From positions 96,001 to 160,000 of the forward strand of contig CAWJKZ010000015.1 of the NCBI GenBank assembly GCA_963843575.1: DNA of 64,000 nucleotides, given 5' to 3'. Positions 25,945 through 44,936 of this stretch are shown one piece after another. The stretch is from an uncultured Acidobacteriota bacterium (GTDB lineage: Bacteria > Acidobacteriota > UBA6911). Made by a program: the position numbers and the translations under genes. Every line of letters starts with the position of its first letter. Positions within the stretch are counted from its first letter, which is position 1. The notes beneath the pieces were generated by a model. The model worked only from the letters and a program-made list of their open reading frames with translations, did not search any database and had not been told where the DNA came from.

Positions 25945-25992
25945 CTTAGGGTTCGCGCCAAAATGTGAACTCATTCTTGTGCGAACTCTAAG
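25945..25992. repeat. 48-bp mini-element (family D)
   Basis: CTTAGGGTTCGCGC...GTGCGAACTCTAAG; inverted copy at 40764-40811. Confidence 0.75.
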
Positions 25993-26010
25993 TTTGCTTT
26001 GATCCGTGTG

Positions 26011-26190
26011 CAAAGCTCGACGGGGCGCTCTGGATGTGGTTCTCCGGGGTGGGCTGGCGGCAAACGCTCTCGTGCCAGGCCGGACCCGCGCTCCGAGCTC
26101 CAGTGCGCTTGCCGCAAGCCCACCCCGGAGAACCAACCGGCGCTTTGCGCCGGCCGCCGTGCGGCATCCAGGGCGCCCCGTCGAGCTTTG
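26011..26190. repeat. Long nested inverted repeat
   Basis: CAAAGCTCGACGGGGCGC/GCGCCCCGTCGAGCTTTG outer arms; GGTTCTCCGGGGTGGGCT/AGCCCACCCCGGAGAACC inner arms. Confidence 0.85.
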
Positions 26191-26260
26191 CCGGCGTTCG
26201 TCCGCGTTCGAGGGATTTTGAGTCGCCTGCGCACTGTTTGAATCGCAGAAGCCAAAAGCA

Positions 26261-27191
26261 CTAGAGGCGGGCGAGGGTGACCTGGGGGAGGAGGTGCTCG
26301 ACGTCGGTGAGGACGATGGTGCCGGAGGTCTCGGTCAGGGCGTTGGCGGCTCCGCAGGCCACCGCGAGGCGGGCGGCTTCCGGGAACGGTGTGCCGCGCA
26401 CGATGCCGGCGGCGAATCCGGCCGCGGCCGCGTCTCCGGAGCCGATCGGGTTGACGGCCTCGATGCGTGGCGCCGCCGCGCGCCAGCAGCGGGAGCCGTC
26501 GGATACGGCGATGCCGGCGGCGCCCAGGGTCACGCAGCCCCACCGCGCGCCGGCCTCGACCAGCAGGCGCAGGGCCGACCGCAGCGCCTCGTCGGTGTCG
26601 GCCGGCGCGTGGGTCAGTTCCTGCAGCTCCAGGCGGTTGGGCTTGACGACCCAGGGGCCAGCCGGGAGGGCCAGGCTCAGCGGCTCCCGGGACGCGTCGA
26701 GCACGACGGGGACGGCGGCGCGCTGCGCGAGCTCCACGCAGTCGCGGTAAAACGCCGGGCGAGCCGCCGGGGGCGAGGGAGCCCGAGAGGACGAGGGCCC
26801 GCGCGCCGGGGAGCAGCCTCGAGAGTTTTGCGGCGAGCGCTTCCCAGGCCTCTGCTGCGACGGGCCGCGGCTCCTCGACCAGTTCGGTGGCCGTGCCGCT
26901 GCCTCGGTCGAGCAGGGTCGTGCAGGTGCGGGTCGTCGCGGTGGTGGTGACGAAATCGTGCGCGATCCCCGCCCGGTCGAGTTCCGCCCTCAAAAAGTCC
27001 GAAACCGGGCCGCCGACGAAGCCGAGGGCGAGGGCGTCCTCGCCGAGCGAGTGCAGGACGCGGGCCACGTTGATCGACTTGCCCGAGGCGGTCTCGCGCA
27101 ACTCGACGACGCGGTTGACGGCGTCGACAGTCAGCCGAGGGAAGACCATCGTCCTTTGCAGGGCCGGCGTCGTGCCGAGGCAAATGATCAT
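26261..27191 (-). CDS. 1-phosphofructokinase/tagatose-6P kinase family (PfkB), +1 frameshift near 26765
   Basis: SGKSINVARVL, LSGSL, then in the other frame KPNRLEL and NPIGSGD. Confidence 0.88.
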
Positions 27192-30633: not shown

Positions 30634-31188
30634 AGCGACCTCCGGGATTGGTTTGAGAATGCGTCATTGTAACGCGGGCTGGGGTTTTTTCGGATGCAGA
30701 TTGACGTGGATCGAGGAACGGCACCTGGTGACGGGCCGCAGCCGATCCGTCGAGTGTTGGAAGGAGGCCGGGGGTAAACTCCCGGCCCCCTGGTGGGCTA
30801 GTTCACCATTTACTCACGAGCGAAAGACCGGGGAGATGCGGACGATCCTGGAAGGAGCAAACCGCATACCATCCGGGCGCGCCCCGTCGGATCGACTCAA
30901 CTCACTCTAATGGTGTGAATTGCCTGGATCCGACCCGACAAGGCGATTCAGCAGGTGAATGTGGGTATTCGTAAAGTATTCCGACGCGCGAAGGGCCCGA
31001 GGCAGCAGCCGGCGGCTGTAATCTGTTTTGCACTAATACTTTGCAGGCCCGTAATCCCGCGCGACCAACCGCGCCGACACTGACGGAAGGTTTTACAGCA
31101 CCGGCGGCACGGGTTGCCCGCGATCGGGGCTACAAAATGATTGCATCGGATCGCGGAACCCTTTATCTTCAGAGAGCTACGAACCGTT

Positions 31189-32271
31189 ATGGAATTGGTG
31201 TGCCGGCATCGTCTGGGTTGGTCCTTGCTCTTTCTCGCGCTTCTTTGCGTGGTGCAGGGACTGGCGGCGAAGACCCGCAAGACGTCTCTCAAGCCATACG
31301 AGTTTGCACTTGCCCGCATGGGCACCATGTTTCGAATCGTGGCGTACGATTCGGAACAGTCCAGGGCAGCGAGTGCGGCGACGGCTGCGTTCGAGCGCAT
31401 CGAGGAGCTCGAGGCTGTCCTGAGCGATTATCGCGAGGACAGCGAGGTTACCAGCCTTTGTCGTGACGGGAACAATGCGCCCCGCGGGGTGAGTCCGGAA
31501 CTGTTCTCGGTGCTGGAGCAATCGCTCCGGATTTCGCGGCTGAGCGGGGGGGCTTTCGACGTCACGGTCGGCCCCGTCGTGCGGCTCTGGCGGGAGGCGC
31601 GCAGGAGCGGCCGCGTCCCGGACACCGACGCGCTGAAGAAGGCCCGCGCCGCCGTAGGATATGGCAACGTTGAGTTGAACCCGGATGCGCGGACCGTTTG
31701 GCTCAAGCTTCCGGGGATGCAGCTGGACTTCGGCGGGATCGGCAAGGGGTACGCCGCCGACCAGGCGCTGGCGCTGCTGCGCGAGCGGGGTATCGCGTGC
31801 GCGCTGGTGGATGCCGGAGGTGATTTGACGCTGGGTGCCTCGCCTCCGGGGACGCCGGGGTGGAGGATCGTGCTCCGCAACCCGGACACGGCGCGGGGTG
31901 CCGAGCCTGGCGTCATGTTCCTGCACGACGTGGGCGTCGCGACCTCCGGGGATGCCTTCCAGTATCTGGAGGTCGACGGGCGGCGCTACTCGCACATCGT
32001 CAATCCCGGAGACGGGATGGGGTTGCGGGGGTCGGCCGGTGTCACCGTGATTGCCCCGGATGGAACCACGGCCGACGCGCTGGCTACCGCGCTGAGCGTG
32101 ATGCCGGTCGCGGATGGTATGAGGTTAGTAGAATCGATGGAGGGGGTCTCCGCCGCTGTCGTGAGGCGAAGCGACGGCGTGTTGAGGCGCACCTCCTCGA
32201 AGCGGTTCCCGAAGGCGGCGGGCGTTCGACCCGCACTGCGCGAGAGCGCCACCGCCTCCGGGCGGCGCTGA
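31189..32271 (+). CDS. apbE: FAD:protein FMN transferase
   Basis: MGT, GAFDVTVGP, LDFGGIGKGYA, ATSG, YSHIVNP, ADALATA. Confidence 0.95.
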   Translation: MELVCRHRLGWSLLFLALLCVVQGLAAKTRKTSLKPYEFALARMGTMFRIVAYDSEQSRAASAATAAFERIEELEAVLSDYREDSEVTSLCRDGNNAPRGVSPELFSVLEQSLRISRLSGGAFDVTVGPVVRLWREARRSGRVPDTDALKKARAAVGYGNVELNPDARTVWLKLPGMQLDFGGIGKGYAADQALALLRERGIACALVDAGGDLTLGASPPGTPGWRIVLRNPDTARGAEPGVMFLHDVGVATSGDAFQYLEVDGRRYSHIVNPGDGMGLRGSAGVTVIAPDGTTADALATALSVMPVADGMRLVESMEGVSAAVVRRSDGVLRRTSSKRFPKAAGVRPALRESATASGRR

Positions 32272-32341
32272 TTACATATACGCTCACCGGCTCAGGGCGA
32301 ACGCGCGCTGCGCCCTCCGGCTTGAACACAGGTTGTCCCCG

Positions 32342-33898
32342 ATGAGTCTTAATCCCGAAAAGAAGAAAGCACGACGCAAGTCCCGTTTCCTGTTTCTCGC
32401 CGGCATGGTCATCGGCGTGGCCGCCATCCTTGGGGCAAAAGCAGGCGTAGACTACAGCTCGACAGACAAATTCTGCGACCAGTTATGCCATTCGCACCCC
32501 CATGCGACCCAGACGTGGATCAAGTCGACCCACTTCACGACGAAGAGCGGCGTCGTGACACACTGCGTGGACTGCCACCTGCCGGGCGGCGGCATTGAGT
32601 ACTACACCGAGAAGGCGCGTCTGGGCCTGCACGACGCCTACGGCAAGCTGTTCAAAGACCCCGCCAAACTCGACTGGATTTCGAAGCGCAGCATCGAGGC
32701 GGCCTCCGACTTCACCTACGACTCGGCGTGCGTCCGCTGCCATCAGAATCTGTTCAGCGCCAAGCTCACAAAGAAAGGCGTGGACGGCCACCTGCACTAT
32801 CAGCGTGCGAAAGAGTCGCTGCGCTGCATCAGCTGTCATCTGACCGCAGGGCACTATCGGGACAAGAAGGCCGACGAAGGAGTGGAGGCCGGCGAGGACC
32901 TGTTCGACCTGACTGCCTACCCGGAAAAGATCGAAGGGTTCAAGGGTTACACGGAGGTGCTTCCCGGAACGCCGGTGAAGTTCGAGATGGTGGCCGTGCC
33001 CGGCGGGTCTTTCCAGATGGGGAGCCCCGACACGGAGCCGTATCGCCGGGTGGACGAAGGCCCCCAGCGGACGGTCAAGCTGAGCCCGTTCTGGATCGGG
33101 CGCACGGAAGTGCGCTGGCGCGAGTGGGAGGTTTTCTACGCTCAGCGCGGCGTCGCCGGCAAGAATGATTCGGACTACGATCCCAACAAGGCGGTGTCCG
33201 GCCCCACCCCCCCATACGGTTCGCCCGACCAGGGTTGGGGGCGCGGTTCGCGGCCGGTCATCACCATGACCCACCATGCGGCAACGGTCTACTGCGAGTG
33301 GCTTACCTCGGTGACGGGCAAGAAATTCCGCCTGCCGACCGAGGCGGAGTGGGAATACGCCTGCCGGGCAGGCACCACGACGCCGTATTTCTTCCCCGGC
33401 GACCCGTCCAGGTTTACCGCCCACACCTGGTGGAACCGGCTGGTCGGCGCCAAGTTGACGCCGATCGGCGACTATGCCCGCTTTGCGGGCACAAGCCGCA
33501 TGCGGACGTTCCCCCCGAGCGCGAGCAAACCCAACCCGTGGGGCATCGTCAACATGCTCGGGAACGTGCGCGAGTTCTGCCTGGATTGGTACGACGCCAA
33601 GGCGTACGGCAAGTACCCGGCTTCCGGGGTCGAGAATCCGCGCGGTCCCGAAGAAGGAAAGGAACACGTCGTCCGCGGCGGATCGTACAAGTCCGACGCC
33701 GCGGACCTCCGCTCGGCCGCACGCGATTTCACGCGTCACGACCGGTGGATGGTCACCGACCCTCAGTCCCCCAAGAGCATCTGGTGGTATTCGGACTGCA
33801 CGGATGTCGGGTTCCGCGTTGTGCGCGAGTATGAACCCGGAGAAATACCGGGAGGGCCGAAGCCCGCCGCGGTCCAGACGGTTGCGCAGGGCAACTGA
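32342..33898 (+). CDS. NapC/NirT tetraheme cytochrome fused to an FGE/SUMF1-like domain
   Basis: N-terminal TM; CDQLCH, CVDCH, CVRCH, CISCH; then VPGGSFQMGS, RLPTEAEWEYACRAG, NMLGNVREF, RGGS, VGFRVV. Confidence 0.9.
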   Translation: MSLNPEKKKARRKSRFLFLAGMVIGVAAILGAKAGVDYSSTDKFCDQLCHSHPHATQTWIKSTHFTTKSGVVTHCVDCHLPGGGIEYYTEKARLGLHDAYGKLFKDPAKLDWISKRSIEAASDFTYDSACVRCHQNLFSAKLTKKGVDGHLHYQRAKESLRCISCHLTAGHYRDKKADEGVEAGEDLFDLTAYPEKIEGFKGYTEVLPGTPVKFEMVAVPGGSFQMGSPDTEPYRRVDEGPQRTVKLSPFWIGRTEVRWREWEVFYAQRGVAGKNDSDYDPNKAVSGPTPPYGSPDQGWGRGSRPVITMTHHAATVYCEWLTSVTGKKFRLPTEAEWEYACRAGTTTPYFFPGDPSRFTAHTWWNRLVGAKLTPIGDYARFAGTSRMRTFPPSASKPNPWGIVNMLGNVREFCLDWYDAKAYGKYPASGVENPRGPEEGKEHVVRGGSYKSDAADLRSAARDFTRHDRWMVTDPQSPKSIWWYSDCTDVGFRVVREYEPGEIPGGPKPAAVQTVAQGN

Positions 33899-33993: not shown

Positions 33994-35346
33994 ATGAAAG
34001 AGGACTTCAGTCGTCGAGACTTTTTTGGGGCGGCTGCCGTAGCCGGCGCCGGCCTCGTCATGGCTTCATGTGCTCAAAAGAAGACTTTCCCAAAGATGAC
34101 CTTTACGGACAAGGCACCGGACGGCCCCGTCCTGAAGGCCGGATTGGTCGGCTGCGGCGGCAGGGGCACGGGTGCGGCCGAGAATTTTCTCAAGGCCGGC
34201 CCCAATCTCCAGGTGGTCGCTCTGGCCGACATGTTCCAGGACCGGATCGACAAGTGCAAGACACGCCTCGAGAGCAAGTATCAGCAGAAGATCGCCCCCG
34301 AGCGGACATACCTCGGGTTCGACGCCTACAAGAAGCTGATCGATTCCGAAGTCGACATCGTCCTGCTGGCTGCTCCGCCGCACTTCCGCCCCATCCACTT
34401 CGATTATGCGGTGGAAGCGAAGAAACACGTCTTCGCCGAGAAACCGGTCGGAGTCGACCCGGTGGGCATCCGCGCGCTGATGGCTTCGGGCGAAAAGGCG
34501 AAGGCCTACAACCTCAACGTTGTGACCGGCACGCAGCGCCGGCACCAGCGCCAGTACCTCGAGAACTACAGCCACGTCAGCAACGGCGCCATCGGCAAGA
34601 TCCTCGCTGCCCGCTGCTACTGGAACCAGGGCCAGCTCTGGTACAAGCAGCGCCAGAAGGAGTGGAGCGACATGGAAGCCATGCTGCGCGACTGGGTCAA
34701 CTGGACATGGCTCTCCGGCGACCACATCGTCGAGCAGCACGTGCACAACATCGACGTCATCGCCTGGTTCATGGGCGCTCACCCGGTCAAGGCCGTGTCG
34801 ATGGGCGGACGCATGCGGCGCGTGACCGGCGACCAGTTCGACTTCTTCTCGACCGACTTCACGTTCGAGAACGGCGTGCACCTGCTCAGCCAGTGCCGCC
34901 AGATCGACGGCTGCGACAACGAAATCTCCGAGTACCTGGTCGGCACCGAAGGCTCCACCAACTGCAGGGGCACGATCTGGGACAAGGAAGGCAAGATAGT
35001 GTGGCAGTTCCAGGAAGCCGCGAAGGAACAGGAGACCCCTGGACAGGTCACCATGCTGGATCCCGAAAAGTCCGACGTCTCGCCCTATGATCAGGAGCAC
35101 GTCGACCTGGTCACCGCAATCCGGACGAACAAGCCGATCAACGAGGCCGAGAGCACGGCCAAGTCGACCCTGACCGCAATAATGGGCCGCATTTCGGCCT
35201 ACACCGGCAAGGAAACGACCTGGGAGCAGATGATGTCCCTGGATCTGAAGCTCGGGCCCGCCGAATATGCCATGGGCCCGATCCCCACTATCCAGGCGAC
35301 CATTCCGGTCCCCGGCACCAGCAAGGTCGTGCTTCCAGCGGAATAG
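33994..35346 (+). CDS. Tat-exported Gfo/Idh/MocA oxidoreductase (possible lipoprotein)
   Basis: SRRDFF, MASC lipobox-like, GCGGRG, EKP, WLSGDHIVEQHVH. Confidence 0.93.
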   Translation: MKEDFSRRDFFGAAAVAGAGLVMASCAQKKTFPKMTFTDKAPDGPVLKAGLVGCGGRGTGAAENFLKAGPNLQVVALADMFQDRIDKCKTRLESKYQQKIAPERTYLGFDAYKKLIDSEVDIVLLAAPPHFRPIHFDYAVEAKKHVFAEKPVGVDPVGIRALMASGEKAKAYNLNVVTGTQRRHQRQYLENYSHVSNGAIGKILAARCYWNQGQLWYKQRQKEWSDMEAMLRDWVNWTWLSGDHIVEQHVHNIDVIAWFMGAHPVKAVSMGGRMRRVTGDQFDFFSTDFTFENGVHLLSQCRQIDGCDNEISEYLVGTEGSTNCRGTIWDKEGKIVWQFQEAAKEQETPGQVTMLDPEKSDVSPYDQEHVDLVTAIRTNKPINEAESTAKSTLTAIMGRISAYTGKETTWEQMMSLDLKLGPAEYAMGPIPTIQATIPVPGTSKVVLPAE

Positions 35347-36711: not shown

Positions 36712-36894
36712 TAACTGCGTCACTACTTCCGCCTCACTTTATAAGGATCTGAAAGGAAGCGAAAGCATTCGTTTGACTCGGGGGGGACGTTCATCGTTTA
36801 ATAGGTGCGAGCTGGCACGAACTTTCGTTATGATAGCTCCCACTTGAGCCGCTGCGTCCGGAGGATTCCGCGCAGGGCAGGAAAGGTTAAGGAC

Positions 36895-38094
36895 ATGAAA
36901 CGACGCTTTGATCTTACCAGGCGCGAGTTCATCCTGTCGTCAGCAGCGGCAGGGACCGCGGCCACCATTACCATCGTCAAACCCGAATCGGTTCGGGGCA
37001 CGCAGGCCAACAGTGCCATCACCCTCGGCTGGGTCGGCCTGGGCGGTCGCGGCACCGCCGATGCCAAGGGGCTCGCGGCTGCCGGCGCCCGGATCACGGC
37101 GCTGGGCGACGTGTTCCAGGAGCGGATTGACGCGGCGCGCAAGATTTTCACCGTCGACGACAGCATGTGTTTCACCGGTTTCGATGCCTACAAGAGAGTC
37201 TGTGACCAGAAAGTCGACGCCGTGATGCTGGTGACGCCGCCGGGATTCAGGCCCGACGAGTTCAGGACGGCGGTGGAGGCAGGCAAGCACATTTTCGCCG
37301 AGAAGCCGCTGGCGGTGGACGCCTGGGGCTGCCGGGACGTGCTGGCGAACGGCGAGAAGGCGAAGACGAAGAAGTTGAGCGTGGTGGTTGGGCTGCAGCG
37401 GCGCTACAGCACAGCCTACCAGGAGGCGCAGAAACTCATCGCCGGCGGAAGGCTGGGCACCATAGTCACGGCGCGCGGATTCTATCTGACCGGCGACGTG
37501 TGGAAAGGGAGAACCTGGCCGCGCGCCGACTTCCCTTCCGAGCAGCACTGGATGGCTCGGAACTGGTATTATTTCAGGGCGCTGTCGGGCGACCTGATCA
37601 CGGAACAGAACATACACAACCTGGATGCGCTCAACTGGGTCCTGGGATCGCACCCGGACCGTTGCGTCGGCTACGGCGGGCGCAAGTGGCGCAAATACAT
37701 CGGAGACATCTTCGATCACTTCAACGTCACCTATGAGTACCCCGGGGGCGTACACCTGACCTTCATGTCGGGCCAGTTCGCCACGCTGCACGACAGTTCG
37801 GAGCAAGTCCTGGGCACCGATGGCACCTTCATGACGACCGGCGGGATGCGCATCGAGGGTAAGGACCCGTGGAAGTACGAAGGCGATAGCGACTCCAACA
37901 AGAACGAGTGGGAAGCGTTCGTCAACAGCGTCAAGAACGGCCAGCCCCGTGCCGACACGGCTCACGCCGTCGACGGCACGTTCACCACGATCCTGGGCCG
38001 GGAAGCCGCCTACACCCGTAAAGAGGTTGAGTGGACGAAGCTCTGGGAAAAGAACGAGAAACTGGAGCGCAAGGCCTATCCGGTGGCGACCTAG
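36895..38094 (+). CDS. Tat-exported Gfo/Idh/MocA oxidoreductase
   Basis: TRREFI, GLGGRG, EKP, LSGDLITEQNIH. Confidence 0.92.
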   Translation: MKRRFDLTRREFILSSAAAGTAATITIVKPESVRGTQANSAITLGWVGLGGRGTADAKGLAAAGARITALGDVFQERIDAARKIFTVDDSMCFTGFDAYKRVCDQKVDAVMLVTPPGFRPDEFRTAVEAGKHIFAEKPLAVDAWGCRDVLANGEKAKTKKLSVVVGLQRRYSTAYQEAQKLIAGGRLGTIVTARGFYLTGDVWKGRTWPRADFPSEQHWMARNWYYFRALSGDLITEQNIHNLDALNWVLGSHPDRCVGYGGRKWRKYIGDIFDHFNVTYEYPGGVHLTFMSGQFATLHDSSEQVLGTDGTFMTTGGMRIEGKDPWKYEGDSDSNKNEWEAFVNSVKNGQPRADTAHAVDGTFTTILGREAAYTRKEVEWTKLWEKNEKLERKAYPVAT

Positions 38095-38160: not shown

Positions 38161-39093
38161 ATGATGAAAAACGTGAATCGCCGCGAGTTCCTGAAAGCCA
38201 CTTCGTCTCTCGCCGTGAGCGGCGCCGTGCTAGGCGCCGGCTTGGCCGTGCGCCCGGAAGCGGCGCCGGCGGCGCCGGCCCCCGGGGCGGGCCCCTGGAA
38301 GGGATTCTGCATCGGCGTCCTCCCGAAGGAGATGAGCGTACTGGACAAGTTCAAGCTGGCCAAGAAGGTCGGCATCGAGGGCATCGAGCCCAACACCCTG
38401 ACAACCCCCGAGGAAGTAGCCGAATACAAGGAAGCAGCCAAAAACACCGGGGTCAAGATTCTCTCGATCATGAACTCGGACCATTGGAAGTTTCCGCTTT
38501 CGGATAACGATCCCGAAGTGGTCAAGAAGAGCATCGACGGCGTGAAGACGTCGCTGAAGAATGCGGCGGAACTGGGAGCCCCCGTCATCCTCCTGGTGCC
38601 AGCGGTGGTCGCCGCGGATGTCCGTTATGCGGACGCCTACACGAGATCGCAGAAGATCATCACGGAGCAGCTGCTCCCGATGGCGAAGGACCTGAAGGTC
38701 ATCATCGGCATCGAAAACGTCGGCAACCGCTTCCTTCTCAGCCCTCTTGAATTCGCCCGCTACGTCGACGAATTTAAAAGCCCCTGGGTCAAGGCCTATT
38801 TCGACGTCGGCAACATCGTTTCGAACGGCTGGCCCCAGGACTGGATTCGCACCCTGGGCCCCAGGCTCTGCAGCATCCACATCAAGAGATTCGAACCGGG
38901 GAAGGATTACCCGAAATACGATCCGGCCGATAGGCGCGGGCAGGGCGTCGGCTGGCCTGAAGTTCGGAGCGCTCTGGCAGAAGTCAAATACACCGGCTGG
39001 ATCACCGCGGAAGTCCGCGGGGGCGACGAGGCCTACCTGACCGAGCTCAGCGCCCGGATGGACAAGATTCTCGCCGGAGACAGCCCCGCCTAG
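38161..39093 (+). CDS. Tat-exported sugar phosphate isomerase/epimerase TIM-barrel protein
   Basis: NRREFL; IENV, YFDVGN, HIK, TAE metal ligands. Confidence 0.9.
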   Translation: MMKNVNRREFLKATSSLAVSGAVLGAGLAVRPEAAPAAPAPGAGPWKGFCIGVLPKEMSVLDKFKLAKKVGIEGIEPNTLTTPEEVAEYKEAAKNTGVKILSIMNSDHWKFPLSDNDPEVVKKSIDGVKTSLKNAAELGAPVILLVPAVVAADVRYADAYTRSQKIITEQLLPMAKDLKVIIGIENVGNRFLLSPLEFARYVDEFKSPWVKAYFDVGNIVSNGWPQDWIRTLGPRLCSIHIKRFEPGKDYPKYDPADRRGQGVGWPEVRSALAEVKYTGWITAEVRGGDEAYLTELSARMDKILAGDSPA

Positions 39094-40767: not shown

Positions 40768-40840
40768 GGGTTCGCGCAAGAATGAGTTCACATTTTGGCG
40801 CGAGCCCCAAGCTACAACGTAAATCCCCGAGAATCCGCGG
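40764..40840. repeat. Family D mini-element plus shared flank
   Basis: Reverse-complement match to about 25912-25992. Confidence 0.75.
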
Positions 40841-40907
40841 CACTTCCACAATAGCTGGCCTGCTCACTGGTTTCAGGGTAAAGTTGTGGGTTCCCCCGGG
40901 GGTGCGC

Positions 40908-43900
40908 ATGGGAGCCCTACACCGTTTCTACCGGATGGCCGGTGCCGGATTCGAGAACTGTTTTTACGTCGAGGCCTGCGAGCCGCTGGAGCCGAACGAA
41001 CTCCAGGTACTGAGATGGCTTCTGGCCGAGACGTTCGAGCCGGACTCGTTTTCGTTCTCCTCGCTGATAGAAGCCGGCGGCGCCGTGGCCGAGGTCGGCC
41101 CGCGCCTGAATTTCGAGACCGCGTTCTCCACCAACGCCGTGTCGATCTGCCGCGCCTGTGGGTTGGGCAAGGTCGTGCGCGTCGAAAAGTCGAGACGCTG
41201 GTTGCTCCCGACCGGGGTTGCGCCGGCGGAATTCGTCGCCGCGCACCATGACCGCATGACCGAGTGCCGTTACCCGGAACCCCTCGCCAGTTTTGAAACC
41301 GGACTCGTGCCTGAGCCGGTGCGGCGGATCCCCGTGCTCGAGCAGGGATGTGAAGCCCTGCGCGCCCTCAACCGTGAATTGGGCCTCGGGATGGACGCCT
41401 GGGACCTGGATTTCTACTACGATTTGTTCCGCAACCATTTCCGGCGCGACCCCACCGACGTGGAGTGCTTCCAGCTTGCCCAGGCCAACAGCGAACATTC
41501 CCGGCACTGGTTTTTCAAGGGTCAGCTCATCATCGACGGCCAGGCGGCGCCCGAAACACTGTTGCAGATCATCAAGTCCACTCTCGAAGCGAACCCGTCG
41601 AACAGCGTCATCGCGTTCCACGACAATTCCAGCGCCATCCGGGGCTACGACGTATGCACGATCTCCCCCCGCGCTCCCGGCCGATGCTCGCCGTTCGACG
41701 TCACGCGAAATGCCTACGACATCATCTTCACCGCGGAGACCCACAACTTCCCGAGCGGGGTCGCGCCATTTCCCGGGGCCGAGACCGGAACGGGCGGACG
41801 AATCCGCGACGTGCACGCGACGGGCCGCGGAGCACTGGTCGTCGCCGGCACCGCGGGTTACTGCACGGGCGGGCTCAACATCCCGGGCCACGCCATTCCC
41901 GGGGAGGACCCCGGATTCGCCTATCCGGGCAATCTCGCGACCCCGCTGCAGATCCTCATCGGGGAAAGCAACGGCGCGTCGGACTACGGCAACAAGTTCG
42001 GAGAACCGCTCATCCAGGGTTTCGCGCGCTCCTTCGGGTTGCGGCTGCCGGACGGGAGCCGGCGCGAATGGGTCAAGCCGATCATGTTTACGGGCGGCGT
42101 CGGGCAGATCGACGCCCGGCACATTCGCAAGGGCGAACCACGTCGGGGGATGCTCGTGGTGCAGGTGGGGGGGCCCGCGTACCGCATCGGTATCGGCGGC
42201 GGGGCCGCCTCGAGCATGATGCAGGGGGAAAACAAGGAAGAGCTCGATTTCAGCGCCGTCCAGCGCGGCGACGCCGAGATGGAGCAGAAAATGAACCGGG
42301 TCATCCGCGCCTGCGTGGAACTGGGGGAGGCCAACCCCATCGTGAGCATTCACGATCAGGGCGCCGGCGGACCCTGCAACGTCGTCACGGAACTCGTGGA
42401 CCCGGCTGGCGGGCGCATCGAGATCAGAAACATCCGGCTGGGCGACCGGACGATGTCGGTGCTCGAGATCTGGGGTGCCGAGTATCAGGAGCGCGTAGCC
42501 CTCCTGTTGCATGCCAAGCGCCTGGCGGGATTCCAGGAGATCTGCGCCCGCGAGAAGGTGAGCTGCGAAATCCTCGGGGAAGTGACCGGTGACGGCAGTA
42601 TCACGGTGCACGACGAGATCGACGATTCGTGCCCGGTTGACCTGGAGCTCGCCCCGATCCTCACCAACATACCCCAGAAGCGGTTCGAGCTGGAGCGGCT
42701 GGCGCAGGCTCGCTCGCCCCTGCGCCTTCCGCCGGATCTGAGGCTGGTGGATGCGGTGCGCGACGTGTTGCGCCTCCCGGCGGTCGGTTCGAAGGGGTTT
42801 CTCGTGCGCAAGGTGGACCGCAGCGTCACGGGCCTGATCGCCCGGCAGCAGTGTTGCGGGCCGCTCCACCTGCCGGTCTGCGACGTGTCGGTGGTCGCTC
42901 AGAGTCACTTCGGTCTGACCGGTGCGGCCCTCAGCATCGGCGAGCAACCGGTCAAGAGCCTGGTCGACGTGCGGGCCGGGGCGCGCATGGCCGTCGCCGA
43001 AGCATTGACCAACATGGTTTGGGCCCTCATCTCCGACCTGTCGCACGTCAAGTGCTCGGTCAACTGGATGTGGGCCGCGAAGACCCCCGGCGAGGGTGCC
43101 GCGATGCACGATGCCGCCGTCGCGTTGCGCGACCTGATGGTCGAACTCGGCATCGCGGCCGACGGCGGGAAGGACAGCCTCTCGATGGCGGCCCGCGTCG
43201 GCGAGGAACTGGTCAAGGCCCCTGGCCAGGTGGTGGTCTCGGGGTACGCCTCGATGCCCGATGTGACCCGCGTCGTGACCCCGGACCTCAAGAGTCCCGG
43301 CGAGAGCCGTCTGATGCTGCTGGACCTGGCTCCAGGGAAGGCGCGCCTCGGGGGCTCCGCCCTCGCCCAGGCGCTTGGCCAGGTCGGGGATGAATCTCCC
43401 GACATCGACGATCCTGCCCTGCTCAAGCGCGCCTTCGTCGTGCTGCAGGACCTCATCCGGGAGGGCCTGGTGCTCGCCGGCCACGATCGCAGCGACGGCG
43501 GCCTGGTCACCACCGTGGCCGAGATGGCCATGGCCGGGAACTGCGGCGTCGACATCGGGCTGGAGGGGGAGTTCGACGATGTTTCTCAACTCTTCGCCGA
43601 GGAAGCCGGGCTGGTTCTGGAATACCTCCCGCAGCACGAGGAACGCATCCGAACGCTGCTCGGCGGGTGCGGCGTCCCGTTCCGCGTCCTGGGCGACACC
43701 ATCAGGGAGCGCCGCGTCACGATGCGCCGGGGCGGCCTCCGCCTCCTGGATCTACCGACCCCACTGCTGCTCTCCTGGTGGGAGGAGACCTCCGACCGCA
43801 TCGAGAGCCTGCAGATGAACCCCGACTGCGCCCGGGAGCAGGCCCTGGCGCACGACCGTCCGGGTCCGCGCTACACGCTTGCGTTCGACCCCGAACCCAC

Positions 43901-44728
43901 GACCGGCGCCTGTCCTTCAGCGAAAGACCAAGCCGAAGGTGGCCATCATCAGGGAAGAGGGGAGCAACGGCGACAGGGAAATGACGTCGGCATTCTATGC
44001 CGCCGGGTTCGAGCCCTGGGACATCACGATGTCGGACCTGCAGCGGGGCGACGTCGAGCTCGACCCCTTCAGGGGCGTCGTGTTCGTCGGAGGCTTCTCC
44101 TACGCCGACGTGCTCGACAGCGCCAAGGGCTGGGCCGGCATCATCCGGTTCGACGAGTCGCTGCGCCACATGTTCGACGGCTTCTACCGGCGCCAGGACA
44201 CGTTTTCGCTCGGCGTCTGCAACGGTTGCCAGCTCATGGCGCTCCTCGGATGGATCCCGTGGGCTGGTATCCCCGACACCAGCCAACCCAGGTTCATCAG
44301 GAACACCTCGGGCCGGTTCGAGTCCCGCTGGGCCACGGTGAAGATCGTCGAGAGCCCCGCCGTCATGCTGAGCGGCATGGAAGGCTCCACGCTCGGCATC
44401 TGGGTCGCCCACGGCGAAGGGCGCTTGCTCTGCCCGGACGGCTCGGTGCTCGACGAGATCCGGCGGCGGAACCTGGCGCCGATGCATTTCGTCGACGACT
44501 CGGGTGAAGCGACGGAGAAATACCCGTTCAACCCGAACGGATCGACCCTCGGGATAACTGTCGCTCTGTTCGGCCGACGGCCGGCACCTGGCGATGATGC
44601 CGCATCCCGAGCGCTCCTTCCTGAAATGGCAGTGGCCTTGGATGCCCGAGGACTGGCGGGCTTCTCTGCGCGCATCCCCGTGGTTGCGCATGTTCCAGAA
44701 TGCGCGTGCCTGGTGCGAAGCGGGGTAG
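40908..44728 (+). CDS. purL: Phosphoribosylformylglycinamidine synthase, large fused type; two +1 frameshifts (~43900, ~44561)
   Basis: NSEHSRH, AETHNFP, HDQGAGG, GGKDSLS; then REEGSNGDREM, GVCNGCQ; final frame gives HLAMMPHPER and ends at TAG 44728. Confidence 0.94.
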
Positions 44729-44737
44729 AGACACAAC

Positions 44738-44818
44738 CACAACAACTTGCCACGGAAATCACGGAATTTCAAAAGTGGAGTTTTCGGTGTTCTTCCGTGG
44801 CCTCCGTGGCGAGTTTTG
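44738..44818. repeat. Family E CCACGGAA doublet
   Basis: CAACAACTTGCCACGGAAATCACGGAA ... TTCCGTGGCCTCCGTGGCGAGTTTT. Confidence 0.75.
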
Positions 44819-44936
44819 GCTTGTGTGCGCCATAGTCTTCGGCGCCCCGATGTACTAATCTTATTCGGTCCCTCCCTGTATGGCATGCGGCCGCTTCCAG
44901 TGCCGCCGCCTCCAGCACACTGTCCATCGGCGATTT

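Follow-up and report, generated by a model that had tools for sequence, protein, structure and literature searches.

The window analysed here, a stretch of 64,000 nucleotides from an uncultured Acidobacteriota bacterium, contains a gene that joins a NapC/NirT-type tetrahaem cytochrome to a domain with the fold of the formylglycine-generating enzymes (FGEs). The gene lies between apbE, which encodes an FAD:protein FMN transferase (FAD, flavin adenine dinucleotide; FMN, flavin mononucleotide), and the gene for a Gfo/Idh/MocA oxidoreductase (GFO1) that bears a signal for twin-arginine translocation (Tat). We consider it rather probable that ApbE attaches FMN to Thr292, which lies in a loop of the FGE-like domain, and that electrons pass by way of this residue from the NAD(P)H (reduced nicotinamide cofactor) of the dehydrogenase to the haems and on to quinone. 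The evidence comes from the conservation of the loop, from the exact ApbE target consensus in distant orthologs, and from the synteny of the fusion gene with apbE. The features on which the argument depends are as follows, all on the plus strand.

31141..32271, +, apbE, FAD:protein FMN transferase with a hydrophobic N-terminal export segment (PF02424, E 5.1e-77)
32333..33898, +, tetrahaem-FGE fusion open reading frame (ORF), NapC/NirT cytochrome plus FGE-like domain, 521 aa from TTG
32354..32458, +, N-terminal membrane-anchor helix, residues 8-42 (helix in the AlphaFold2 (AF2) model; hydrophobic stretch FLFLAGMVIGVAAILGA)
32474..32839, +, four haem c motifs, C48x3C52H, C78xxC81H, C133xxC136H and C165xxC168H (from the translation)
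32984..33730, +, FGE-fold domain without the presumed FGE catalytic cysteine pair (PF03781, E 3.7e-41)
33188..33241, +, conserved loop K286-G303 (KAVSGPTPPYGSPDQGWG) with a flavinylation-like motif (from column entropy and model confidence)
33206..33208, +, Thr292, the proposed FMN-bearing residue, within the stretch AVSGPTPPYGSPDQGWGR; last residue of [ST]-G-[PA]-[ST]
33994..35346, +, GFO1, Tat-exported Gfo/Idh/MocA oxidoreductase (PF01408, PF22725, PF02894)

A conserved loop with an ApbE-like target motif

Translation of the fusion ORF places KAVSGPTPPYG at codons 33188-33220 and S289-G-P-T292 at 33197-33208, in agreement with the preliminary description of this DNA, which had read KAVSGPT and SGPT at these positions and had assigned them to a loop of the FGE-like domain. 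The loop does lie inside PF03781, and residues 289-301 form the only internal segment of the AF2 model with a predicted local distance difference test score (pLDDT) below 50 and have no secondary structure. In a 121-member family alignment, residues 286-303 have a mean column entropy of 0.46 bits, compared with 1.17 for the whole domain and 2.57 for the preceding linker, and they rank among the lowest-entropy 18-mers of the FGE-like domain. G290, P298, Q300, and G303 are invariant, and T292, P293, P294, Y295, and G296 are at least 90% conserved. A first pattern scan for [ST]G[PA][ST] followed by PP[YW]G matched 114 of the 121 sequences, the seven misses being misses of the pattern. Near-invariance in a loop that the structure prediction leaves unmodelled is as expected of a site that becomes ordered only when a cofactor or a partner is bound.

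Targets of ApbE are reported to carry the motif D-x-x-[S/T]-G-A-[S/T], with FMN on the last residue (PMC12052999), and the column of Thr292 corresponds to this FMN-linked residue. We compared 80 orthologous loci from species-representative genomes of Acidobacteriota, Planctomycetota, Gemmatimonadota, Bacteroidota (Marinifilum and Mariniphaga), Calditrichia, and KSB1, together with two metagenome-assembled genomes labelled Acidimicrobiia. The pattern [ST]G[PA][ST]PP is found at the aligned column in 79 of them, and the exception, L095, is a fragment; Thr or Ser occupies the Thr292 column in 79/80. The variants in these 79 loci are TGPT (34), SGPT (19), TGAT (13), SGAT (7), SGPS (3), TGAS (2), and TGPS (1), so that 22 of the 80 loci have [ST]GA[ST], and Asp stands at position -6 in 69. 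In the most distant orthologs (39-54% identity) the loop reads VDAITGATPPY in Gemmatimonadota, VDAISGATPPF in Marinifilum, and EIITGATPPY in KSB1, and the loops of the Gemmatimonadota and Marinifilum are exact instances of the published ApbE consensus. Pro at -1 is common to the window copy and its closest relatives, and the same small clade has lost the Asp too. The motif had been called non-canonical at the outset. This is apt for the window copy and for most Acidobacteriota and Planctomycetota copies, which have Pro at -1, and does not extend to the family as a whole.

Synteny with apbE and GFO

All 80 loci have a GFO1 ortholog downstream in the same orientation, in 68 of them within 500 nt. 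In 49 loci apbE lies upstream, co-directional and within 2.5 kb; these include most of the Acidobacteriota loci, five of the six from Planctomycetota, and one from Gemmatimonadota (L086). No apbE was present in the stretch examined around the other 31 loci, four of which have under 1.1 kb of upstream flank, and all 31 genomes encode ApbE elsewhere (1 to 5 matches each). Two Calditrichia loci, L077 (G003:C2) and L082 (G008:C61), have no adjacent apbE; in each case the contig carries an ApbE gene at a distance of about 17-19 kb. Thr or Ser is kept in linked and unlinked loci alike, contrary to an earlier expectation that the Thr might be invariant only in apbE-linked members. A tally of 401 genomes sampled evenly from the window's phylum, which includes the unpublished genomes G059, G162, and G034, found ApbE in all 16 that encode the fusion (8, counting G000) or a cytochrome-less sister of it (8). 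This is supporting rather than strong evidence because relatives are not independent.

Within the window, the end of apbE is separated from the fusion ORF by 61 nt on the same strand, and the closest solved relative of the encoded protein is 7esa, an FAD:protein FMN transferase (E 2.4e-45). Pfam searches gave no match to FMN_bind (PF04205) in the fusion protein or among the 10 neighbouring ORFs scanned, and no match to FMN_bind, NqrB/RnfD, or DUF2271 turned up in the whole genome (6.68 Mb, 88% complete). The earlier statement that no canonical FMN_bind substrate accompanies this apbE was therefore correct for its neighbours and holds genome-wide, and no competing ApbE target of the known families was found in this 88% complete genome. 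GFO was considered as the target and rejected: its 87 orthologs have no conserved [ST]G[APSG][ST], with a maximum of 4/87 at any position. The loop is absent from the 8 other FGE-domain paralogs in the genome, none of which is within 54 kb of an ApbE gene or 34 kb of a GFO-like gene. We also dropped an attempt to assign the window ApbE as a transferase or a pyrophosphatase, since both classes are reported to transfer FMN (PMC4767422).

A cytochrome-less sister family and the ApbE tree

Eight homologs (L099-L106) have no cytochrome domain. They are 44-51% identical to the fusion protein over residues about 200-510, have signal-peptide-like N-termini, and carry the loop D-A-V-[ST]-[RK]-P-[ST]-P-P-Y (e.g., DAVTRPTPPY). 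A GFO gene is adjacent in all eight loci, and apbE lies within 2.1 kb in six. No cytochrome c gene and no other conserved neighbour was found in the eight loci, and the idea of a local haem partner for this family was rejected on that ground.

Phylogenetic analysis of 77 ApbEs, by a quick maximum-likelihood tree, recovered one clade with a Shimodaira-Hasegawa-like approximate likelihood ratio test (SH-aLRT) value of 99 that unites 42 Acidobacteriota fusion-linked ApbEs, six sister-linked ApbEs, and the unlinked L132. The window ApbE falls in this clade of ApbEs adjoining FGE-like genes, and the source genome of L132 is that of L037, an Acidobacteriota locus whose fusion gene has no apbE beside it. 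ApbEs linked to the fusion in Planctomycetota form a separate clade with the unlinked L129, from the Phycisphaerae genome of L043, and the ApbE linked to L086 groups with unlinked Gemmatimonadota ApbEs (SH-aLRT 95). The association of ApbE, an FGE-like protein, and GFO thus occurs in two architectures and at least three phyla. Taken computationally, the motif column held in 79 of 80 loci, the exact consensus in distant orthologs, and the synteny with apbE support the original suggestion that SGPT may be an FMNylation site on an FGE fold.

Architecture of the fusion protein

An identical database entry of 518 aa makes the ATG at 32342 the probable true start of the fusion gene. Pfam places PF03264 on residues 13-174 (E 1.6e-25) and PF03781 (FGE-sulfatase) on residues 218-466, and the fusion protein has both the N-terminal helix and the four C-x(2-3)-C-H motifs of NapC/NirT proteins. 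Both domains are present in 119 of the best 120 database relatives, which are 52-75% identical to the fusion protein. All eight Cys and four His of the haem motifs are invariant in the family alignment. The first motif (32474-32491, CDQLCH) is CX3CH instead of CXXCH, a form shared by 72/121 members, and CX2CH is found in 49/121. The AF2 model built with the family alignment has a mean pLDDT of 84.7 and a predicted template modelling score (pTM) of 0.86.

Motifs for c-type haem are matured outside the cytoplasm. In the fusion protein a single N-terminal helix is followed by such motifs and, in the same chain, by the FGE-like domain, which places the target residue on the extracytosolic side. 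Each of the three proteins carries a sign of export, namely the export segment of ApbE, the membrane anchor and c-type haems of the fusion, and the Tat signal of GFO1 (TIGR01409, 17.2 bits against a cut-off of 16.7), and ApbE, the FGE-like domain, and the GFO enzyme are all predicted to be extracytoplasmic.

Proposed mechanism

In the mechanism that we propose, the fusion would be a membrane-anchored, periplasm-facing NapC/NirT tetrahaem cytochrome, and its C-terminal FGE-fold domain would serve as a flavin carrier. The ApbE encoded upstream would move FMN from FAD onto the Thr292 hydroxyl; the exposed loop that holds this residue, AVSGPT, may be regarded as a Pro-for-Ala variant of the target motif with, in the window copy, Lys in place of Asp as well. 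The covalent FMN would accept hydride from NAD(P)H tightly bound in Tat-exported GFO1 and would then give single electrons to the four haems, from which they would pass to the quinone pool. Electrons would therefore flow from sugar to GFO-NAD(P)H, to FMN-Thr292, to the four haems, and to quinone, and the three genes together would encode a periplasmic dehydrogenase:quinone oxidoreductase. FMN would be the logical link between nicotinamide and haem because a tethered FMN takes hydride and gives single electrons. We infer the covalent flavin, the contact between the partners, and the direction of electron flow, the last from standard redox potentials.

Tat-exported Gfo-type dehydrogenases with bound NAD(P) are described in Bacteroides, where their acceptor is presented as an open question (PMC8121099). 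A wider form of the proposal, which we hold more tentatively and would not yet favour outright, is that the FGE fold was recruited as a flavin-carrying domain and that a dedicated ApbE clade accepts the relaxed motif [ST]-[G/R/K]-[P/A]-[ST]. With or without the tetrahaem anchor, the resulting protein could be the acceptor so far missing for the re-oxidation of NAD(P)-loaded, Tat-exported GFO dehydrogenases.

Points against the proposal and alternative explanations

Several observations weigh against flavinylation of Thr292. The window copy departs from the consensus twice, with Lys286 for Asp and Pro291 for Ala, and keeps the S, G, and T. Among motif mutants, Thr-to-Ala is reported to have abolished flavinylation and Asp-to-Ala to have had minor effects, and Gly-to-Ala and Ala-to-Val are reported to have lowered flavinylation to about 50%, with Pro not among the substitutions covered (PMC12052999). 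In the sister family Arg or Lys stands at the Gly position; because this residue replaces Gly, and Gly-to-Ala halves flavinylation, the sister trio may lack a covalent flavin and bind it non-covalently, or its ApbE may be otherwise employed. Part of the motif also comes with the fold: FGE MDAVVPEAPWW aligns with the family sequence vDAVTGPTPPY, and since true FGE has MDAV here, D-A-V is inherited and not independent evidence, only [ST]-G-[PA]-[ST] being new. To our knowledge no flavin site has been described for the FGE fold.

Chance and background rates count against it as well. In the ORFs of at least 400 aa of this genome, the frequency per 1000 residues is 0.041 for [ST]GP[ST] and 0.113 for [ST]GA[ST], and one or more 4-mers of this kind are present in 206 of the 2412 ORFs (9%). 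A lone SGPT is not significant for that reason, and the signal comes from conservation and synteny. ApbE itself is common, being present in 253 of the 401 sampled genomes (63%), and its presence elsewhere in a genome is weak evidence. Finally, the raw counts associate Pro at -1 with an adjacent apbE (47/57 Pro loci against 1/22 others), but co-evolution of the two was rejected, as there are only 2-3 independent Pro/Ala changes on the family tree (sign test p = 1); for this test the fragments L095, L026, and L056 were left out, and rows with less than 1.5 kb of upstream flank were unscored for adjacency.

Some of these points could be accommodated if the loop were a structural or docking element, contacting GFO or the haem domain and never flavinylated, with ApbE serving another target or supplying periplasmic FMN. 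The D-A-V and the following Pro-aromatic residues shared with true FGE, the break of the ApbE motif at Gly in the [ST]-[RK]-P-[ST] of the sister family, and the frequency of the 4-mer in long ORFs would all suit this explanation, as would the reported ability of both Ftp/ApbE classes to hydrolyse or bind FAD (PMC4767422). We nevertheless think it unlikely. It leaves unexplained why distant orthologs have the exact seven-residue ApbE consensus and why apbE is adjacent in three phyla and two architectures, and it names no other target, the known target families not having been found in the genome. Moreover, a purely structural loop should be modelled confidently, and this loop is not.

The departures of the window copy from the consensus suggest a narrower possibility, in which flavinylation is real in the [ST]GA[ST] orthologs and the Pro variants, KAVSGPT among them, receive little or no modification, their FMN being non-covalent or dispensable. 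The window copy has neither Asp at -6 nor Ala at -1, and the published substitutions at the Gly and Ala positions did reduce the modification (PMC12052999). A dedicated adjacent apbE, however, stands most often beside the Pro variants, Thr/Ser and Gly stay fixed in the Pro copies, which suggests continued selection on the site, and replacement of the Asp had little effect in the same account. We regard this possibility as quite improbable.

The identity of the FGE-like domain bears on a further explanation. A profile search of solved structures matched it to FGEs (6s07, E 3.5e-33), PvdO, and PorK, and the best fold match in Foldseek was PvdO (5hha, E 6e-18, TM(target) 0.79), with FGE structures at E about 1e-16. 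FGE has a Cys pair near its C-terminus that we take to be catalytic and copper-binding (the entry names of 2aft and 2afy refer to C336S and C341S mutants). In the 6s07 profile alignment, the FGE stretch GGSFlchESYCNRY faces GGSf...ksdaadl in the fusion protein, with no Cys at either place. As judged from this alignment, the domain is not a formylglycine-generating enzyme, because the stretch with the two catalytic cysteines has no counterpart. Relatives of the fusion protein are nonetheless named formylglycine-generating enzyme or SUMF1/EgtB/PvdO family nonheme iron enzyme in the databases. The best NCBIfam match is NF051459 (dihydropyoverdine dehydrogenase, PvdO), at 104.4 bits against a cut-off of 500. 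That the domain is a PvdO-type enzyme oxidising a GFO-related small molecule, with the haems as electron sink and the loop in its active site, would fit these best matches to PvdO but is the least likely of the explanations weighed here, as the NF051459 score is far under its cut-off, ApbE is left without a role, and the copper-binding Cys pair of FGE is absent.

Comparison with known systems

Flavinylation of Thr292 would place the fusion protein alongside the FMN_bind-type substrates of ApbE (NqrC, RnfG, NosR, and PplA), which are described as extracytosolic electron relays between the membrane and periplasmic redox partners (PMC12052999, PMC8238504) and which likewise receive FMN through ApbE on the last Ser/Thr of the motif. 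The fusion differs from them in its unrelated FGE/C-type-lectin-like fold, the absence of PF04205, Pro at -1 and Lys at -6, and the fused tetrahaem cytochrome. Two new ApbE substrate families were recognised from apbE colocalisation and a motif-like sequence in a loop that was inserted or unstructured, and Ser/Thr-to-Ala variants confirmed the site (Huang et al. 2024, preprint, 10.1101/2024.03.13.584918), the same recognition logic as is applied here. In that account the folds had prior non-covalent flavin binding and came mostly from Firmicutes, unlike the FGE fold, with no flavin site known as noted above, and the range of the fusion family, which covers Acidobacteriota, Planctomycetota, Gemmatimonadota, Bacteroidota, Calditrichia, and KSB1.

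The fusion resembles the NapC/NirT proteins (NrfH, CymA, NapC, and TorC, the last with an extra C-terminal domain) in its N-terminal helix and four haem c motifs, and a profile search matched it to NrfH (2j7a, E 4.7e-9). It differs in the C-terminal FGE-like domain, in the CX3CH form of its first motif, and in an electron flow that we would place toward quinone and not from quinol. GFO1 is likewise comparable to Zymomonas GFOR and Bacteroides BT2158, which are described as Tat-exported Gfo-type enzymes with tightly bound NAD(P) (PMC8121099); these are thought to regenerate their cofactor by reducing a second sugar, whereas for GFO1 we propose a haem-flavin acceptor in the membrane. FGE (SUMF1 and the enzymes of T. 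curvata and S. coelicolor) and PvdO have their fold in common with the domain of the fusion protein. FGE has the Cys pair and the loop VPEAPWW, whereas the fusion has no such pair, a fused cytochrome, and a TGPT/TGAT loop. Neither Meheust 2021 nor Huang 2024 mentions an FGE-type fold or a NapC/NirT protein in its main text, the larger supplementary tables of these papers might list the domain, and a full-text search for literature linking ApbE with formylglycine enzymes, or NapC with FGE, found nothing relevant.

Other genes in the window and the genome

Beyond GFO1 lie a second GFO gene (36805-38094) and a gene for a signal-bearing, xylose-isomerase-like TIM barrel (38161-39093), which among the 80 loci recur clearly only in L016, the closest relative. 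Elsewhere in the window, the ORF at 25971-27191 (-) begins like a sugar/nucleoside kinase, becomes Arg/Pro-rich after about 150 residues, and looks like a frameshift or an assembly error. The very long ORF at 40782-44507 (+), purL-like by eye, ends in about 200 Arg-rich residues and is overlapped in another frame by 43879-44835 (+), which encodes an ordinary-looking protein; this may reflect a frameshift in a large single-chain gene.

The genome has four full ApbE genes. On contig C21, a 515-aa protein with a membrane domain of the DoxX type and the sequence HAITGAT is encoded (L096:5251-6798, +) directly upstream of an ApbE paralog (L096:6668-7951, +); Pfam gave no FMN_bind match for it, and from its sequence it is a possible second unconventional ApbE target. 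A third ApbE, on contig C24 (L097:6773-7876, + and L097:8441-9712, +), lies between a tyrosyl-tRNA synthetase gene and a Gfo/Idh/MocA oxidoreductase, with no FGE-like gene among the ORFs scanned. The fourth, on contig C9 (L098:5556-6896, + and L098:6905-7861, +), directly follows a DUF362 protein.

Significance

ApbE flavinylation has so far been seen on a handful of folds. If the proposal is true, an FGE-fold target with a Pro motif would widen both the range of substrates and the sequence rule, and genome screens that use [ST]GA[ST] would miss such targets. Thousands of proteins now named formylglycine-generating enzyme or SUMF1/EgtB/PvdO would also be misnamed. The proposal would further offer a testable answer to how periplasmic Gfo-type dehydrogenases with permanently bound NAD(P) shed their electrons. 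The family, common in difficult-to-culture phyla of soils and sediments, may matter for extracytoplasmic sugar respiration in these organisms. If true, the wider form of the proposal would define a widespread, undescribed route by which electrons from sugars enter the respiratory chains of Acidobacteriota, Planctomycetota, Gemmatimonadota, Bacteroidota, and others.

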